Virus record (IMG/VR): IMGVR_UViG_2778261641_000004 | Coordinates: 1-7,062 of that record | Direction: 5' to 3' (one strand) | DNA length: 7,062 nucleotides | Source: a virus | Taxonomy: Duplodnaviria; Heunggongvirae; Uroviricota; Caudoviricetes | Made by a program: the position numbers and the translations under genes | Part shown: in pieces, positions 1,832 through 6,722 of the stretch | Layout of the letters: each line of letters begins with the position of its first letter | How positions within the stretch are numbered: position 1 is the first letter of the stretch | The notes under the pieces: generated by a model | What the model saw: the letters and a program-made list of their open reading frames with translations, nothing else | Told to the model about the DNA's origin: nothing | Databases searched by the model: none

Positions 1832-2863
1832 ATGTCGAAAAACTGGATGCGTCACTTTGAATTATTGCTTGTTGATGATAAGGGCGACGGGATAAAAATT
1901 TCTGAGCTTAAAGTCACTTTCAATATTCAGAAAATGCCTGCGAGCATATTTAATGGATTCGTTGGAAATTTTAAGGTTTATAACCTGTCCCCTACCACTC
2001 AGAATCGGATTATGCAAAAGGAGTTTTCGCGTATACAGGTTATTGCCGGATACAAGGGGCAACCGGATGCAGCAGGTAATTATCCTGATGAAAACGTTGG
2101 TATGATATTCAATGGAGATATCCGTTTTACTGTCACTGGTAAAGATAATGCCACAGACAGTTGGATCATGTTGCAGTGTATTGACAGCTGGGAAGGTCAC
2201 CTGAACGCAAGTGTGAAAACCACAGTGGCAGCTGGCTGGAAGTACAGCGATCTTTTCAGTCTGGGTATGAAATCATTCGAACCATATGGCATCGAATCCG
2301 GTGCAGTTCCTGACATGCCGGAAACGGTATTCCCCAGAGGTCGCGTTGTTTATCAAAACACATCAAGGTTGATGAATCATATCGCAGGGCAGTGTAAAGC
2401 TAACTGGTGGTATGAAAATAATCTGGTAAATATTGTTCCTGAAGATAAATATATTGGTGTTGCTACGGTGTTGAATGCTAACACCGGGCTTATCGGTATG
2501 CCACAGCAGACGATGGGCGCTGGCGTAAATGTCAGATGTCTGATTAATCCAAATATTAAGCTCGGTGGGCTTATTCGTCTGGATCAGGCATCTGTATACC
2601 GTGCCTCTTTGAGTAATGACCAGGTAGCGAAATCGCCAGCACGACTGGATGAGTCTGAAAGCGACGGTAATCTCTACGTTAACGGTCTGCCAGGCATGTC
2701 ACAGCCTGCCAGCATTAATACTGACGGTGATTACATTGTGGGCAGCATTGATTATACTGGCGATACCCGAGGGCAGGCGTGGTATATGGACCTGCTTTGC
2801 CTGGCTAAAGGTGGCAAAGAATTGCTTAACTCGAAAGGGATTGATGCGGAGAAATACACATGA
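1832..2863 (+). CDS. baseplate hub-like protein (P2 gpD / Mu gp44 / T4 gp27-like), 343 aa
   Basis: GGAG 5 nt upstream of ATG 1832. The N-terminal pattern (AGYKG...IFNGDIRFTVTGKDNATDSWIMLQCID) and C-terminal pattern (GAGVNVRCLINPNIKLGGLIRL ... GDYIVGSIDYTGDTRGQAWYMDLLCL) resemble hub (late control D) proteins as I remember them. Not verified by search. Confidence 0.5.
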   Translation: MSKNWMRHFELLLVDDKGDGIKISELKVTFNIQKMPASIFNGFVGNFKVYNLSPTTQNRIMQKEFSRIQVIAGYKGQPDAAGNYPDENVGMIFNGDIRFTVTGKDNATDSWIMLQCIDSWEGHLNASVKTTVAAGWKYSDLFSLGMKSFEPYGIESGAVPDMPETVFPRGRVVYQNTSRLMNHIAGQCKANWWYENNLVNIVPEDKYIGVATVLNANTGLIGMPQQTMGAGVNVRCLINPNIKLGGLIRLDQASVYRASLSNDQVAKSPARLDESESDGNLYVNGLPGMSQPASINTDGDYIVGSIDYTGDTRGQAWYMDLLCLAKGGKELLNSKGIDAEKYT

Positions 2864-3195
2864 AAAGACCATTGTTGACAGTTTTACTTGTCTGTATCTC
2901 CTTCATTTCCTTTGCTGATACCGGTTGCGGACCATTTACGATCAACTGGAAAGCGCAAGACGGACTTGCAAGGATTAATGGACAGAAACCGGAGACACAG
3001 AAAATCATCTTTCTCAAACAGGAAGGTGATTATGACAATGTGAACATCCAATGGATGATTCCGGGTAATGGGCGTTGGTTAGGGATGGATTTTGTGGCCA
3101 GAAATGGCAAGCCGATCCTCAACGTTGAAGTTATCCGCAAAAATATGGACGAGCCTCGGGAGTTCTGGACGTATGATTGCCGGAAGGTTAAATGA
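2860..3195 (+). CDS. small secreted (periplasmic) protein with Sec signal peptide; candidate moron / superinfection-exclusion-type protein (111 aa)
   Basis: ATG overlaps the hub stop (ATGA). The N-terminus MKRPLLTVLLVCISFISFA is a classic signal peptide (basic n-region, hydrophobic core, SFA cleavage motif). There is no canonical lipobox. The mature part has two Cys (near residue 23 and near the C-terminus). The gene is AT-rich and is followed by an intrinsic terminator. Confidence 0.6.
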   Translation: MKRPLLTVLLVCISFISFADTGCGPFTINWKAQDGLARINGQKPETQKIIFLKQEGDYDNVNIQWMIPGNGRWLGMDFVARNGKPILNVEVIRKNMDEPREFWTYDCRKVK

Positions 3196-3210
3196 TCTTG
3201 CCCTCTCCGT

Positions 3211-3234
3211 AACCCACCGTCAGGTGGGTTTTTT
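3211..3234 (+). terminator. rho-independent terminator (T1) closing the TMP-hub-secreted protein transcription unit
   Basis: Perfect 8-bp stem AACCCACC / GGTGGGTT with a GTCA loop, followed by a T6 tract (3229-3234). The hairpin overlaps the last codons of the convergent mnt-like gene. Confidence 0.75.
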
Positions 3235-3540
3235 GTTTAGCAGTTCTCTCAACTTTTCGTTCTGCTCTCTGAACTTTTCCTGTATTTCTTTTTGCATGGC
3301 GATAACCTGGGCTTGAAGTTGAACTAGCGCATCAACATTTAGCGGAACCGAGACGCTGTTGATTTTGTCTGCTATTTCCCCAAGAGTATTTTCTGCATTC
3401 AAGGCATCTTCCAGTATCTGCACAATCTCTGAGTTCATTGATCTGCCGTTACGTTTAGCTCGTTCAGCTATAGCATCTCGCATTCCTGCAGGAAGCCTGA
3501 TATTGAACCTATCCATTTCATGACTAGGGAACTTGCTCAT
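3220..3540 (-). CDS. mnt: Mnt-like ribbon-helix-helix (Arc/MetJ superfamily) repressor with C-terminal coiled-coil (106 aa)
   Basis: DRFNIRLPAGMRDAIAERAKRNGRSMNSEIVQILEDAL aligns with remembered P22 Mnt (HFNFRMP...ANGRSMNSELLQIVQDAL). The C-terminal heptad-like region (LQAQVIAMQKEIQEKFREQNEKLRELL) is consistent with Mnt tetramerisation. GAGG lies 6 nt upstream of the ATG on the - strand. Confidence 0.8.
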   Translation of the reverse strand: MSKFPSHEMDRFNIRLPAGMRDAIAERAKRNGRSMNSEIVQILEDALNAENTLGEIADKINSVSVPLNVDALVQLQAQVIAMQKEIQEKFREQNEKLRELLNKKPT

Positions 3541-3574
3541 ATGACCTCAATGTAAAGATGTTTGCTAAACAATA

Positions 3575-3630
3575 GCACCAACTTGACATCAAAATAAATG
3601 GTGTTAAATTGGTTCTAGAACCAAGTTGGT
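3575..3630. promoter_or_regulatory. divergent promoter/operator region between mnt-like and arc-like genes (putative Pant plus operators)
   Basis: Perfect -35 TTGACA (3583-3588), a 16-nt spacer, then extended -10 TGtTAAATT (3602-3610) facing arc/ant. A 16-bp perfect palindrome TTGGTTCTAGAACCAA (3609-3624) overlaps the -10 and predicted +1. A 9-bp inverted repeat ACCAACTTG (3577-3585) / CAAGTTGGT (3622-3630) overlaps the -35. The - strand promoter for mnt could not be placed confidently. Confidence 0.55.
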
Positions 3631-3651
3631 ATCATTGTGGGAGGATTACTT

Positions 3652-3825
3652 ATGAAAGATGTGCTTTACACAGGTCGTAAAAGTCAAAGTTTCCAGCTTC
3701 GTTTGCCAGCGCGAATGAAGGAGGAGATTAGACGTGTTGCTGAAATGGATGGAATTTCTATCAACTCTGCGATTGTGCAGCGACTGGCTAAAAGCCTGAG
3801 AGAGGAAAGAGCTAATGCCCAATAA
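3652..3825 (+). CDS. arc: Arc-like ribbon-helix-helix repressor (57 aa)
   Basis: SFQLRLPARMKEEIRRVAEMDGISINSAIVQRL resembles remembered P22 Arc (QFNLRWPREVLDLVRKVAEENGRSVNSEIYQRV). GGGAGGA (3639-3645) lies 6 nt upstream of ATG 3652. The GTG start at 3637 in the ORF track lacks an RBS. Confidence 0.75.
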   Translation: MKDVLYTGRKSQSFQLRLPARMKEEIRRVAEMDGISINSAIVQRLAKSLREERANAQ

Positions 3826-3898
3826 AAATAGTGAAGCCCGGCAGTGCGCGAACACAAACCGGGCCTCTATGTCAGTAACCGTATGCAAGGAAACTAAC

Positions 3899-4525
3899 AT
3901 GAATATTGTAGCAAAATCAGATTACAACTTCCACGGAGTTGAGTTGGTGCCCACCCGTGATATGCATGGTGTTTGGTTTACGTCATCTAATATTGCATCT
4001 GCACTTAAATATGCAAATAGCCGTGCAGTAACAATGATTTATAACAAGTATAGCGATGAGTTTAGCGCCGGAATGACTCAGGTACTCGAAGTGAGTACCT
4101 CAGGAAATTATCGCAAAAAAGTGCGAGTTTTCTCACTACGCGGTGCCCACCTAATCGCGATGTTTGCTCGCACTCCGGTAGCCAAAGAGTTCCGCCGCTG
4201 GGTGCTGGATATTTTGGATCGGCAGGCAGAATGCTCACCGATTGCAAAACAGTTCACTGACGAAGAGCTGGTTAATCTCTGCTACTTACAATTGTGGATG
4301 GAGAAGAGTCAACAAATGTGCAAACACATCTACCCAGGAATGAAGCAAATTGGTTCTGAGCTTTCAGGAAGGATTTACGATATTGCATATGAGACTCGCT
4401 ACATGTCAGAAGAAACCAAGAAATCACTTCTTCGTGAAATGAAGAATCTTGATACCAACAATTTTGTCGTAAAGAACGCTCAGCCAATGCTGGCAAAACT
4501 TCGCGGCGAGGAATGGATTCATTGA
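3899..4525 (+). CDS. ant: phage antirepressor, BRO-N/Ant-type N-terminal domain (209 aa from ATG 3899; possible upstream start at 3815)
   Basis: YNFHGVELVPTRDMHGVWFTSSNIASALKY ... LRGAHLIAMFARTPVAKEFRRWVLDIL matches the BRO-N/antirepressor pattern (F.F..IR...G.PWF.A.DVA.ALGY ... A..F..WV). AAGGA (3887-3891) lies 7 nt upstream of ATG 3899. The gene is immediately downstream of arc, as in P22 immI. Confidence 0.7.
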   Translation: MNIVAKSDYNFHGVELVPTRDMHGVWFTSSNIASALKYANSRAVTMIYNKYSDEFSAGMTQVLEVSTSGNYRKKVRVFSLRGAHLIAMFARTPVAKEFRRWVLDILDRQAECSPIAKQFTDEELVNLCYLQLWMEKSQQMCKHIYPGMKQIGSELSGRIYDIAYETRYMSEETKKSLLREMKNLDTNNFVVKNAQPMLAKLRGEEWIH

Positions 4526-4540
4526 TTGGTGCACAGGACG

Positions 4541-4574
4541 GCGCAAAAGAAAACCGCCAGTGTGCTGCTGGCGG
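4541..4574 (-). terminator. reverse-strand rho-independent terminator in the ant - antirepressor-2 intergenic region
   Basis: Perfect 7-bp GC-rich stem CCGCCAG / CTGGCGG (4554-4560 / 4568-4574) with a 7-nt loop. On the - strand it is followed directly by TTTTCTTTT (complement of + 4545-4553). On the + strand it is followed by CCTATGTCAC, with no U-tract, so it is oriented for leftward transcripts only. Confidence 0.6.
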
Positions 4575-4618
4575 CCTATGTCACACCCTTACTACCACAT
4601 AAGGAATGCCTAATGACT
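4545..4618 (-). ncRNA. candidate sar-like antisense RNA overlapping the RBS and start codon of the second antirepressor-like gene (hypothetical)
   Basis: Candidate - strand promoter inside the 5' end of the 4613 gene: -35 GTGACA (+ 4648-4653), 17-nt spacer, -10 TACATT (+ 4625-4630), predicted start near 4617-4619. The transcript would run leftward across ATG 4613 and SD 4601-4605 and end at the - strand terminator, giving about 70-75 nt. This is inference only. Confidence 0.3.
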
Positions 4619-5338
4619 TTTAAGAATGTAGCAAACATCGGATCCGTTGTCACGGATAAAACCATTGACAGCCAAAGTCTTCTGATGATGGTTAATGAAG
4701 CTCGCAAGTTATGTGGAGAGCCATCAGTACGTAACAACAAATTCATCGAGAAAATTGAGGATGAATTGGAAGGCGAGACCTACACAAAAAGTGTAGGTCG
4801 GAAAAACGGGGCTGACATTGATGTTATCTCCATGACTATCAAGCAGGCGCTTCGTGTTGCTGCTCGCGAATCTAAAGCAGTTCGCCGCTCACTTGTAGAC
4901 CAACTTGAAAGTATGCAAGAAGCGCACATTAAAAGCGGTAAATCGTCGAGTGGACTTGTTGAGTATCGCCAGGCGCGAACATTGAAAATGACGGTTGAAG
5001 CTGTTACCAATCTGTTCGATTTGATGCCAAATCTTGCGCCGGAAGCAAAGCAGACCGCGGCCGCAAGCATAATCAACCCGATCGTTGGTTTTAATGCAAT
5101 ACCCCTTCCGGCAATAGAAGAGCATTACTACTCAGCAGGGGAGGTTGCAGAGCAGCTTGGAGTAACGGCCAACAAGATTGGTCGCATTGCTAACGCAAAC
5201 AACCTCAAAACTGAGCAGTACGGGAAGTTCTTCCTGGATAAATCGGCGCATTCCAGCAAACAGGTGGAAGCATTCCGCTACAATGCGGAAGGTGTTAAAG
5301 CACTACAACACCTGGTTCATGGGAGTAATGTTGCATAA
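4613..5338 (+). CDS. second antirepressor-like / phage regulatory protein (Rha-like N-terminus, KilAC/ANT-like HTH C-terminus), 241 aa
   Basis: AAGGA (4601-4605) lies 7 nt upstream of ATG 4613. The N-terminus (TIDSQSLLMMVNEARKLCGEPSVRNNKFIEKIEDEL) resembles Rha-family regulators. The C-terminus (YYSAGEVAEQLGVTANKIGRIANANNLKTEQYGKFF) resembles the KilAC/ANT antirepressor C-terminal domain. The TTG start at 4526 in the ORF track has no RBS and would read through the hairpin. Confidence 0.5.
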   Translation: MTFKNVANIGSVVTDKTIDSQSLLMMVNEARKLCGEPSVRNNKFIEKIEDELEGETYTKSVGRKNGADIDVISMTIKQALRVAARESKAVRRSLVDQLESMQEAHIKSGKSSSGLVEYRQARTLKMTVEAVTNLFDLMPNLAPEAKQTAAASIINPIVGFNAIPLPAIEEHYYSAGEVAEQLGVTANKIGRIANANNLKTEQYGKFFLDKSAHSSKQVEAFRYNAEGVKALQHLVHGSNVA

Positions 5339-5559
5339 TGGCAAAGAAAAAATATGGCATTATGCCGCCAAGAATCAAAGGAAGAGCCATGGTAAAAGGC
5401 GATGCTGGGAGATATCACATTCTTGGTGTTTTGTGGCATGAGAGAGCTTTAATTTTAAGCAGACCTCATGGGTACATTGAAAAGGTATCTATAGATAGAA
5501 TTGAGATTCTTCCCCTTACTCCTGAAGAAGAAGAAACGTACGGACTTTTTGATAACTAG
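5338..5559 (+). CDS. small hypothetical protein (73 aa), translationally coupled to the antirepressor-like gene
   Basis: ATG 5338 overlaps the upstream TAA (TAATG). It has a basic N-terminus (MAKKKYGIMPPRIKGR) and an acidic C-terminus (TPEEEETYGLFDN), and is followed by terminator T2. No family recognised. Confidence 0.45.
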   Translation: MAKKKYGIMPPRIKGRAMVKGDAGRYHILGVLWHERALILSRPHGYIEKVSIDRIEILPLTPEEEETYGLFDN

Positions 5560-5570
5560 CCAATTCACTA

Positions 5571-5594
5571 AACCCAGCTTCGGCTTGGTTTTTT
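5571..5594 (+). terminator. rho-independent terminator (T2) at the 3' boundary of the accessory module
   Basis: Stem AACCCAGC / GCTTGGTT (one mismatch or bulge) with a TTCG tetraloop, followed by a T6 tract. It matches T1 at 19 of 24 positions. Confidence 0.7.
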
Positions 5595-5613
5595 ACTTTC
5601 TGGAGACATATGA

Positions 5614-6369
5614 ATGCCCGTTTCTTTAAGCGATCAACTTGGTAGCAAAGAACAGGCCGATGTAAGACTTGCTGGCTCTGTCATGTCGGCGCTGCGTGTT
5701 TCTATGCCCGGCATCGTCCAGTCATTTGATCCGGACACGGTAACAGTGGTTGTTCAACCTGCGATTAAAGGCTATGAGCCGGACTCAAATGGAATCAACC
5801 AGTCGACGACATTACCCCTGCTGGTGGATGTGCCGGTGGTATTCCCGCGCGGCGGCGGCTGCACGTTAACTTTCCCGGTGAAAGCCGGCGATGAATGTCT
5901 GGTGATTTTTGCCGATCGCTGCATCGATTTCTGGTGGCAGAACGGCGGGGTACAGGAGCCTGTCGATGACAGAATGCATGATTTATCGGATGCGTTCTGT
6001 ATCGTCGGTCTGCAGTCTCAGGCGCAGAAAATCAGCGGAATCAGCACCAGCGCCGCGCAACTGCGTACTGATGATGGCGCTGCGTTTGTGGAAGTGGCCG
6101 CAGGCCATAACATCACGGTTAAAACCCCCGGCGCGCTGACGGCGACAGCAGAAGGTGGGACAACAATCACATCCCCGACTATCACGCTGAACGGCAACGT
6201 AACGATTAATGGCAATCTGTCTCAGGGAATGGGCGAAAGTGGCGGTACTGCGACGATGCTTGGCCCTGTCACGGTGACTAACGATGTAAAAGCTGGTGGT
6301 AAGAGCCTGATGACGCACACGCACGGCGGAGTACAGACCGGCGGCGGTAACACAGGAGCGCCTAACTGA
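5614..6369 (+). CDS. baseplate central spike protein (P2 gpV / phi92 gp138-like, OB-fold N-domain plus Gly-rich beta-helix with His apex), 251 aa
   Basis: GGAG 8 nt upstream of ATG 5614. The N-terminal pattern (LLVDVPVVFPRGGGCTLTFPVKAGDECLVIFADRCIDFWW) is OB-fold gpV/gp138-like. The C-terminus has Gly/Thr-rich repeats ending in KSLMTHTHGGVQTGGGNTGAPN, analogous to the P2 gpV apex (KVLHTHKHPGD...), where the HxH motif binds iron. Confidence 0.8.
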   Translation: MPVSLSDQLGSKEQADVRLAGSVMSALRVSMPGIVQSFDPDTVTVVVQPAIKGYEPDSNGINQSTTLPLLVDVPVVFPRGGGCTLTFPVKAGDECLVIFADRCIDFWWQNGGVQEPVDDRMHDLSDAFCIVGLQSQAQKISGISTSAAQLRTDDGAAFVEVAAGHNITVKTPGALTATAEGGTTITSPTITLNGNVTINGNLSQGMGESGGTATMLGPVTVTNDVKAGGKSLMTHTHGGVQTGGGNTGAPN

Positions 6370-6722
6370 TGCGATACAGACGTGAAGACGCCGATGGCGA
6401 TTATACCTTTGGCAGCGGTGATGACACCTGGCTGATTAACTCACCGGAGGCCGTGGCGCAGGCGGTAAAAACGCGATTCAAATTGTGGTATGGGCAATGG
6501 TTTCTCGATACCACCGAAGGGACTCCGTGGATCCAGTCCGTACTCGGTAAGCAGAAGCCGGAAACCTACAACCTGGCGATCCGTAAGCGCATCCTCGAAA
6601 CGCGGGGCGTTAAATCAATCCTCTCTTTCAATACGACGGTGGATACCACGACCCGACGTGTCATGTTTTCCGCTGAAATCGACACTCTTTATGGAATAAC
6701 GACTGTTACATCGGAGGCGTAA
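6369..6722 (+). CDS. small baseplate wedge protein (gpW/gp25-like or DUF-type baseplate protein), 117 aa
   Basis: ATG overlaps the spike stop (TGATG). Its size and its position between the spike and the baseplate-J gene match gpW/gp46-type proteins. The sequence-level match is not certain. Confidence 0.5.
   Translation: MRYRREDADGDYTFGSGDDTWLINSPEAVAQAVKTRFKLWYGQWFLDTTEGTPWIQSVLGKQKPETYNLAIRKRILETRGVKSILSFNTTVDTTTRRVMFSAEIDTLYGITTVTSEA

Follow-up and report, generated by a model that had tools for sequence, protein, structure and literature searches.

Gene content of the locus

The window analysed here, a 7,062-nt stretch of DNA, comes from a lambdoid prophage with a contractile tail, in which a block of cargo genes lies between the hub gene, with a small ORF after it, and the spike gene. 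The block is bounded by two terminator hairpins, T1 and T2, and the features are arranged as follows.

2860–3195, plus strand: last backbone gene left of the cargo, 111 aa, with an N-terminal signal-like segment (ORF list; phrog_3443)
3211–3234, plus strand: T1, predicted rightward intrinsic terminator at the left cassette end (8-bp stem, GTCA loop, T6)
3220–3540, minus strand: mnt-like repressor gene, 106 aa, with an Arc/ribbon-helix-helix N-terminal domain, convergent with the late operon
3541–3651, no strand assigned: divergent control region with a Pant-like promoter (TTGACA at 3583–3588, 16 nt, TAAATT at 3605–3610)
3652–3825, plus strand: arc-like repressor gene, 57 aa (Pfam Arc, E = 8.3e-12)
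3826–3925, minus strand: sar homologue, putative antisense unit (alignment with the annotated P22 sar region)
3899–4525, plus strand: ant1, antirepressor with Bro-N and P22AR C-terminal domains (Pfam PF02498 and PF10548; phrog_245)
4541–4653, minus strand: candidate second sar-like antisense unit against ant2 (promoter-like site and terminator)
4613–5338, plus strand: ant2, second antirepressor-family gene, 241 aa (phrog_1726, anti-repressor, E = 4.6e-101)
5338–5559, plus strand: 73-codon ORF, last cargo gene (phrog_4977)
5571–5594, plus strand: T2, predicted P22-type ant terminator (t_ant) at the right cassette end, with a G-to-T change at 5586
5602–6369, plus strand: spike ribosome-binding site (GGAG, 5602–5605) and spike gene (ATG at 5614), first backbone gene right of the cargo

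The T1–T2 interval is a P22-type immI module, comprising an mnt-like gene, an arc-like gene, a sar homologue, two antirepressor genes and the 73-codon ORF. The mnt-like protein matches Pfam Arc (PF03869, E = 1.6e-20) and phrog_1287, and homologues in three other loci (L004, L007 and L070) are 89–93% identical to it; its 106-aa gene has the hairpin at a KKPT* end in common with 83-aa P22-type Mnt genes. The Pant-like promoter, identified in a promoter scan by consensus match only, agrees at 10 of 12 positions and has the TG element. An inverted-repeat search found palindromes around this site, at 3597–3636 and 3569–3585/3622–3638, which by analogy with the P22 annotation are candidate operators. 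In the sar homologue, the −10 region falls among the initial codons of ant1 and the arc–ant1 spacer contains a long terminator hairpin; its predicted antisense RNA runs from about 3893 to 3830 on the minus strand. The unit folds at −23.9 kcal/mol (z −3.1) and shares with P22 sar the stretches TTGCTAyAmTATTCATG and TTACTGAC and the GArGCCC...GGGCTTCA hairpin, whereas the Rfam search returned no match for it. The phrog matched by ant1 is anti-repressor Ant, and positions 3819–5563 are 96.5% identical at the DNA level to the P22-like phage JEP4.

The second sar-like unit, on the minus strand, consists of a promoter-like site (4653..4625; GTGACA, 17 nt, TACATT, with TG) and a terminator (4577..4551) followed by a U tract. 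The predicted antisense RNA of ~76 nt, from about 4618 to 4543 on the minus strand, would span the ribosome-binding site and ATG of ant2, and the same promoter–terminator pair is kept in L074 despite an Ant2 that is only 65% identical. This sequence arrangement makes the unit a candidate regulator acting against ant2. The ant2 product has no match in Pfam. The 73-codon ORF, followed by the same T2 joint, is also found in two other loci (L278 and L279). Pfam and phrog searches of the cassette revealed no recombinase or transposase genes.

A cargo hotspot between hub and spike

The start of the 111-aa gene overlaps the hub gene stop (ATGA). This gene is kept in most, but not all, relatives; its protein has no match in Pfam, and phrog_3443 is of unknown function. 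On the other side of the cargo, the spike protein has the Pfam spike N-terminal domain (E = 2.9e-44) and a GpV apex motif. The initial annotation described the insert as AT-rich, which holds relative to the right flank (44.3% versus 53.2% GC) but not relative to the left one (hub and small ORF, 44.6%). The flanks are common to 755 E. coli genomes, none of which carries the whole cargo, and the gaps between them range from 2 nt to 2.4 kb. No single complete E. coli genome or phage record aligned over as much as 80% of the window. Cargo is present or absent at the same site among closely related phages, and the hub–spike junction in this prophage family is a cargo hotspot. A terminator lies 9–20 nt before the spike ATG in 106 of 111 cargo-bearing loci, and close relatives share the junction sequence ACTTTCTGGAGACATATGA regardless of cargo. 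For the ten commonest cargo proteins of the hotspot, PADLOC gave no match and Pfam only YafO, tRNA_anti-like and DUF4236. The MAFFT alignment of the junction terminators shifted stems of unequal length between registers, which would make a covariation count misleading, and the stem variants were listed instead.

Terminators T1 and T2

As initially annotated, the two terminators bracket the accessory block: T1 (AACCCACCGTCAGGTGGGTTTTTT) stands at its left end, beginning 15 nt past the stop of the 111-aa gene, and T2 (AACCCAGCTTCGGCTTGGTTTTTT) at its right end, 11 nt past the stop of the 73-codon ORF. Each is a G+C-rich stem-loop with a U tract directly after it, downstream of a gene. Their description as near-identical is borne out by the match at 19 of 24 positions (20 of 24 with the intact form of T2) but not by their quality. 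T1 has a perfect 8-bp stem and a 4-nt loop, folds at −14.0 kcal/mol (z −4.0) and was called by the consensus scan, whereas T2, of the same layout, has a C.T stem mismatch, folds at −7.9 kcal/mol and was missed by that scan. The mismatch is due to a private G-to-T change at 5586. The intact form, present in L004, L151, L153, L278 and L279, folds at −15 kcal/mol, and its 22-mer occurs in at least 120 viral contigs, compared with none for the mutated 22-mer. The ant terminator annotated in the P22 reference record (ACCCAGCTTCGGCTGGGTTTTTTT) matches the intact T2 of the relatives at 23 of 24 positions. Judged by sequence, T2 is the annotated P22 ant terminator with one private G-to-T change. As the stem mismatch weakens this terminator, the copy analysed here may insulate incompletely.

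The T1 hairpin contains the 3′ end of the leftward Mnt-like repressor gene: its minus strand encodes KKPT and the stop codon (TCA, 3220–3222, in the loop). IMG/VR contains 14 exact T1 copies: 13 share their contig with an Arc-family homologue, and 12 stand at the end of a full-length Arc-family ORF that finishes in KKPT*; these 12 ORFs are 83–124 aa long and 35–91% identical to the window protein. A degenerate copy of T1 is found at the mnt 3′ end in P22. Because the minus strand of T1 lacks a U tract in this backbone, T1 probably does not end the mnt transcript here, unlike in those contexts in which it has an A run before it.

The cassette in other backbones

The T1...T2 unit was found in four unrelated tail-gene contexts, including a lambda-type context between tail genes L and K (L151, L153), the P22-like immI position (T1 in L152, intact T2 in P22 itself) and a second myovirus type, where it lies between the tape-measure and baseplate genes (L278, L279). 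The sipho, P22-like and second myovirus contexts all share the T1 hairpin core. T1 is the point at which homology to the window begins, and in the comparison of L004 with L153 this homology stops at the T2 tail, the right-hand end being assigned only where it could be resolved. The empty L–K site is only 4–5 nt long and contains no terminator in 4,331 of 5,426 E. coli genomes; therefore, both hairpins arrive with the cassette at this site, where extra sequence past T2, including a new K start, also came in. The elements of the cassette have been transferred together between backbones.

Origin of the cassette ends and alternative explanations

Measured against local background terminators, the similarity of T1 and T2 ranks in the top 1%. 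When T1 was compared with 257 other terminator-like hairpins from the fetched loci, the mean match was 10.7 positions and the maximum 18; none reached 19 of 24, and thus the T1/T2 match is unusual for arbitrary terminators. The class CCCACC-N4-GGTGGGTTTTTT, however, is very common, occurring in at least 120 viral contigs with 34 different loops among the matches listed, and its AA-prefixed members (96 of 123 among the matches listed) all match T1 at 20 or more of 24 positions. The Rfam scan of the window returned a single, sub-threshold match, between T1 and the terminator of the unrelated E. coli sRNA sroH (23 of 25 aligned positions), which serves as a control for generic shape and not as an identification of T1. 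Similarity of this degree is no proof of common descent, and the resemblance between T1 and T2 fits a shared, very common enterobacterial terminator class and not an insertion footprint.

The initial annotation had suggested that the similarity may be such a footprint, left by recombination at a terminator hairpin, with generic shape accounting for part of it. In the corresponding rival explanation, T1 and T2 would derive from one terminator and the module would have entered by recombination at the resident junction terminator, leaving diverged direct repeats. The geometry of the two hairpins is indeed identical, with differences limited to one base-pair flip and two loop changes, and the insert-free relatives, proposed as a check, include the two closest to this clade (L101, L116), with a single junction terminator, although more distant ones have none. 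Yet this backbone has another variant, CCCGCC...GGCGGG, as its resident junction terminator, seen with non-immI cargo types, and T1 is as similar to these unrelated terminators as to its own partner (19 of 24 in both cases). In other cassette variants (L074, L077 and L078), the identity of the pair is only 11–12 of 24. Moreover, both stem-and-loop cores are unchanged in four unrelated backbones, no chimeric hairpin was seen among them, and the empty L–K site contributed no terminator. We therefore regard the origin of both hairpins from one terminator at this junction as unlikely and do not retain their likeness as a trace of acquisition, although a similarity in the top 1% of the background may reflect an old T1/T2 duplication. 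Target-site duplication agrees poorly with repeats that are 79% identical, with an empty L–K site lacking a copy and with a cassette lacking a recombinase. Two related candidates were rejected: T2 is not the resident backbone terminator, being the t_ant variant of other backbones and not CCCGCC...GGCGGG, and Campbell-type insertion of a circular cassette at a resident terminator is at odds with the lack of chimeric hairpins and with the terminator-less L–K site.

The part of the acquisition claim that places exchange at terminator hairpins fares better, in that mosaic breakpoints coincide with hairpins. Unrelated flanks meet the cassette at both edges, at least 12 on the left at the base of T1 and at least 10 on the right just past the T2 tail; the third hairpin (4551–4577) also coincides with mosaic breakpoints, and the JEP4-type segment joins T2 inside its 5′ arm. 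Terminator stem-loops might accordingly be viewed as physical joints for recombinase-free, hairpin-guided exchange of modules between unrelated phage late operons, which, if true, would explain why flanks so diverse begin at hairpin edges. Selection alone would give the same picture, since joints inside a gene or hairpin would be lost; furthermore, the cassette encodes neither recombinase nor transposase, and at the L–K site the incoming DNA extended past T2 as far as a new K start. We consider guided exchange of this kind improbable. Even less credible is the possibility that T1 and T2 halt all transcription and so divide the tail genes into independently transcribed units, with the spike operon served by its own promoter. 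T1 has the features of a strong canonical terminator, as this explanation demands, but the T2 T tail ends only 7 nt before the GGAG at 5602 and 19 nt before the spike ATG, in agreement with the initial remark that there is essentially no spacer and leaving no room for a promoter. The promoter scan detected no promoter-like site in 5338–5614, including the T2–spike gap, and any promoter upstream of T2 would face T2 itself. The Q gene and internal terminators of a close relative also point to one antiterminated late transcript.

Read-through and the proposed role of the terminators

The closest full prophage, that of E. coli LWY24, is lambdoid and encodes a Q-family antiterminator; its lysis, head and tail genes form one co-oriented run containing other strong internal terminators. 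A Q-antiterminated late operon is thus recognizable in LWY24 and not in the window itself, which has no Q gene or Q binding site, the gene having been seen in this close relative only. Given a close lambdoid relative with a Q antiterminator, late read-through is the likely route to spike expression, and antiterminated read-through, one of the two routes initially envisaged, is the most plausible. Consistent with this, intra-operon terminators may stop transcription that has not been modified by gp23/gp24 (PMC8022706), and the P22 tail gene downstream of the immI module depends on read-through (PMC2629481).

Collectively, we think it probable that a portable P22-type immI module (‘ant moron’) resides in a late tail operon with T1 and T2 as its boundary terminators, which provide insulation and are passed by Q read-through. 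In the lysogen, T2 would end transcripts initiated at the module's own promoter short of the spike and baseplate genes. T1, acting rightward, would halt polymerases that arrive unmodified from the tail genes upstream and would otherwise transcribe mnt in antisense. In the lytic cycle, Q-modified polymerase would pass both hairpins, and the spike, wedge and J genes would therefore be made from a single late transcript. The termination efficiencies, the insulating role and the Q dependence of read-through are all predictions from sequence.

Under this interpretation, a prophage can hold a switch-like antirepressor module amid tail genes that remain undisturbed: the two end terminators would separate module and operon in the lysogen, and antitermination would rejoin them in lytic growth. 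The presence of the same insulated unit in four tail architectures is useful for annotation, and the junction terminator before the spike gene provides a landmark for finding uncharacterised cargo genes. The initial observation is real and largely explained by known biology, representing a known kind of arrangement in a new location; current understanding of terminators, morons and immI is unchanged by it.

Comparison with known systems

The closest counterpart is the immI region of P22, an ‘ant moron’ (mnt, arc, sar, ant, t_ant) that lies between genes 16 and 9. In both, a leftward Mnt-family ribbon-helix-helix repressor gene runs opposite to arc–ant, and arc leads the rightward operon, followed here by a Bro-N/P22AR_C antirepressor. 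In both, a sar antisense unit has, by sequence, its promoter within the start of ant and its terminator between arc and ant, and an ant terminator hairpin, identical but for one base, precedes the next late gene. Moreover, both modules lie in a late operon, and the tail gene immediately after the module is read-through-dependent in P22 (PMC2629481). Unlike P22 immI, the present module occupies the hub-to-spike site of a contractile-tail lambdoid prophage and has two antirepressor genes and the 73-codon ORF, its Mnt-like protein is 106 aa long with a different C-terminal half, T1 is intact instead of degenerate, and T2 has a stem mismatch.

Morons of the HK97/HK022 type carry their own promoter and their own terminator, so that a repressed prophage can express them while their neighbours stay off (PMC3594210). 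The present cargo similarly lies as additional DNA among the tail genes, is missing from relatives and has its own promoter-like TTGACA/TAAATT (3583–3610, consensus match only) and its own terminator, T2. It differs in its regulatory nature, its divergent promoters and its terminators at both ends, and in having a GC content distinct from the right flank only. The single long late run, with intrinsic terminators that only Q-modified polymerase would pass, recalls the lambda-type late operon; the Q gene is found in a close relative but not in the window, which also lacks a Q binding site, and Q dependence here is suggested by analogy. Finally, like integron attC cassettes and IS200/IS605-type elements, the module is a discrete stem-loop-bounded unit found in many contexts. 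This likeness to hairpin-bounded mobile cassettes is superficial, as the module has no recombinase, its hairpins are ordinary terminators and its ends are unrelated by symmetry.

Gene order and the cargo block

The window is a prophage tail and baseplate section whose backbone genes, by ORF listing and domain and family assignments, all lie on the plus strand:

100-873, +, tape-measure C-terminus
873-1523, +, baseplate protein
1527-1829, +, plug
1832-2863, +, hub
2860-3195, +, small protein of 111 aa with a signal-like N-terminus
3196-5613, cargo block of 2.4 kb
5614-6369, +, spike
6369-6722, +, wedge-like gene
after the wedge-like gene, +, J-family gene (start only)

The cargo block is a P22-type immunity-I (immI) module:

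3540..3220, -, mnt counterpart, an Arc-family gene of 106 aa
3583-3610, near-consensus promoter (TTGACA, 16 nt, TAAATT) of a divergent control region with palindromes
after the control region, +, arc-like Arc-family gene of 57 aa
3' of the arc-like gene, +, ant1, antirepressor with Bro-N and P22AR C-terminal domains
3' of ant1, +, ant2, second antirepressor-family gene
last cargo gene, +, 73-codon ORF

The initial annotation described the insert as AT-rich, which holds against the right flank (44.3 versus 53.2% GC) but not against the left (44.6%). The arc-ant1 spacer and the first ant1 codons align to the annotated sar antisense unit of P22, with the -10 region and the terminator hairpin both kept. 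A second sar-like candidate unit, directed against ant2, may lie on the minus strand at 4541-4653: a promoter-like site within the first ant2 codons and a strong minus-strand terminator in the ant1-ant2 spacer would yield a predicted antisense RNA of ~76 nt spanning the ant2 RBS and ATG. Comparison locus L074 keeps both elements despite an Ant2 only 65% identical. Mosaic breakpoints also fall at the hairpin at 4551-4577: similarity to Salmonella phage SPN3UB stops within it (4575), homology to L074 starts near it (~4543), and L077 retains it next to a different downstream gene.

Properties and identity of the two hairpins

T1 (3211-3234) and T2 (5571-5594), the look-alike hairpins at the left and right ends of the block, have exactly the positions and sequences first described and agree at 19 of 24 positions, as claimed. 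T1 is a textbook terminator, with an 8-bp stem, a 4-nt loop, six T and a fold of -14.0 kcal/mol that none of 200 shuffles matched, and it is called by a consensus terminator scan. The same scan does not report T2, whose stem contains a C.T mismatch and whose fold reaches -7.9 kcal/mol, so the two are not equivalent. The spike GGAG lies 7 nt, and the spike ATG 19 nt, beyond the end of the T2 tail, and a promoter scan found no promoter-like sites in the stretch that separates the last cargo gene from the spike.

T2 corresponds to a named element: in the P22 reference record, ACCCAGCTTCGGCTGGGTTTTTTT is labelled the ant terminator (t_ant), and the intact T2 of relatives matches the P22 24-mer at 23 of 24 positions, both anchored at the T run. 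The window T2 differs from the intact form by a single G-to-T change at position 5586, which breaks one stem pair. At least 120 viral contigs of IMG/VR contain the intact 22-mer and none contains the mutated one, so the change is either private to the window sequence or a sequencing error; if real, it could make the terminator leaky.

T1 is bound to the mnt-like gene, whose stop codon sits in the T1 loop; the T tract, 3' arm and loop together encode K-K-P-T-stop. Among the matches listed for the IMG/VR sample, 13 of the 14 exact T1 copies have an Arc-family homologue in the same contig and 12 close a full-length Arc-family ORF ending in KKPT-stop. ORFs with this ending come in several lengths (83 aa, the P22 Mnt type, but also 88, 106, 114 and 124 aa), and their identity to the mnt-like protein of the window spans 35 to 91%. 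P22 itself has a degenerate T1 copy at the corresponding place, and its Mnt ends in KKTT-stop. An A run preceding the hairpin makes it bidirectional in many contexts; the left flank in the window lacks such a run, and T1 is therefore mainly a rightward terminator here. At positions 1-60 of L278, a second-type myovirus locus, T1 adjoins a minus-strand LexA-family repressor gene rather than an Arc-family gene, implying that the left-end hairpin can persist through a repressor swap.

Portability of the cassette

The T1...T2 unit is common to four unrelated tail-gene contexts.

Tail-gene contexts of the T1...T2 unit
Context 1: small protein gene / spike; window and same-backbone immI loci L004, L007, L070
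Context 2: lambda-type tail genes L / K; O157:H7 and other strains, L151, L153
Context 3: classical immI position in P22-like prophages; T1 from L152, T2 from P22 itself
Context 4: tape-measure / baseplate genes of a second myovirus type; L278, L279

The window and L153 share homology from 3213, inside the T1 5' arm, and outside the block starting there only over the 24 nt of T2; in the L004-L153 comparison, homology stops at the final T of the T2 tail. The empty L-K site, found in 4,331 of 5,426 E. coli genomes, consists of just 4-5 nt and lacks a terminator, indicating that T1 and T2 both come with the cassette there. The left flank abutting T1 comes in at least 12 unrelated versions and the right flank after the T2 tail in at least 10. 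Of 121 t_ant sites, 30 have a T1-class hairpin on their own strand, 1.5 to 3.6 kb upstream (IMG/VR sample, matches listed). Cassette-filled (L151, L153; 5145-5185) and empty (L154, L155; 350-400) L-K sites differ in the K RBS and first ~ten codons, K starting with MLYSNILAHA in the former and MTQTESAILAHA in the latter; the insertion thus carried in a new K start.

Origin of the T1/T2 likeness

The similarity had been proposed to be a footprint of acquisition. Against 257 other terminator-like hairpins T1 scores 10.7/24 on average and 18 at most; as none reaches 19/24, T1 and T2 are unusually alike for arbitrary terminators, and descent from an ancient duplication is conceivable. However, viral contigs with hairpins of the class CCCACC-N4-GGTGGGTTTTTT number at least 120, the matches listed having 34 different loops, and T1 agrees with the sroH terminator at 23 of the 25 positions in their alignment. 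Moreover, T1 is equally close (19/24) to a non-partner, the resident-type T2 of L074, whereas own pairs in L074, L077 and L078 share only 11-12/24. The cores of both hairpins are constant over four backbones without any chimeric hairpin, and the empty L-K site is terminator-free. Together these observations disfavour common descent or an insertion scar, and the best explanation of the likeness is a common terminator design that both hairpins share.

The hub-spike junction as a cargo hotspot

The flanks of the block are shared by 755 E. coli genomes, none of which has the whole cargo; the annotated cargo of relatives includes DUF4282, Phd/Doc, a YafO pair, TPR proteins and others. We sorted 143 loci encoding a spike relative by the gap before the spike.

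Terminators at the junction by gap length
Gap >120 nt (cargo present): 111 loci; terminator 9-20 nt before the spike ATG in 106
Gap 46-120 nt: 13 loci; single terminator in 12
Gap <=45 nt: 15 loci; no terminator in 13

Whether insert-free relatives have a single terminator at the junction, the check initially proposed, thus has a divided answer: close ones do (L101, L116), and those further removed lack a terminator there. The resident variant, CCCGCC-ACCC-GGCGGG, keeps the same sequence with three different cargo types and two spike alleles, and immI-cargo loci have the t_ant variant in its place.

The distance from the hub or small-protein gene to the spike (window 3196-5613; L001-L148) varies from 2 nt to 2.4 kb. 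The cargo comprises 183 ORFs in 65 clusters, most without a Pfam family, and PADLOC gave no match on the ten commonest cargo proteins; examples are a 153-aa protein in 19 loci, a 190-aa protein paired with YafO, a tRNA_anti-like secreted protein, and DUF4282, DUF4236, Phd/Doc and TPR proteins. Five loci (L001, L005, L006, L008, L009) have a common non-coding remnant in the first ~75 nt past the small-protein gene, reading ...DAPKIIGSFPCKK, which resembles the C-terminus of the alternative small-protein allele of L026 and L037 and was apparently left behind when one allele replaced another at the left edge of the hotspot. Loci of several genera, differing in cargo, have the motif TTGATCAGTAA, or a close variant, directly 5' of the resident terminator (L008, L009, L017, L040, L060, L102, L115, L130, L142). 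E. coli relatives have two spike alleles, ~69% (L002, L003, L005, L008, L009) and ~98% (L001, L004, L006, L007) identical to that of the window, and the next gene is 97-99% identical, placing a mosaic boundary at the spike-wedge junction. Enterobacterial-type spike loci (L041, L062; hit H6) in records titled Chryseobacterium sp., Bacillus sp. (a 320-nt contig, 97% identical) and Elizabethkingia phage EKP1 are likely contamination or mislabelling.

Proposed function and relation to known systems

We infer the termination efficiency, insulating role and Q dependence of T1 and T2. In a lysogen, the Mnt-like repressor would hold off the ant promoter, and T2 would end transcripts begun there ahead of the spike, while T1 would block stray rightward tail-gene transcription from entering the mnt antisense strand; upon induction, Q-modified polymerase would pass both. 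Read-through, one of the two routes to spike expression first suggested, is well supported by context: the closest full prophage, E. coli LWY24, has cI, cro, cII, nin genes, a Q-family antiterminator and lysis genes, followed by a single co-oriented head and tail run that holds other strong terminators. Morons bear their own promoter and terminator (PMC3594210), and intra-operon terminators may halt transcription lacking gp23/gp24 modification (PMC8022706).

Overall, the T1/T2 observation is real, with the caveats described. For annotation, its value lies in the comparative picture, which will not surprise a specialist: a cassette bounded by terminators and found in four tail architectures, and a cargo hotspot anchored by a terminator. 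P22 offers the precedent for read-through, as its ant moron lies within the late operon and P-late polymerases cross it into the tailspike gene (PMC2629481). The element itself, P22 immI together with its ant terminator, is of a known kind; its position in this backbone is new.
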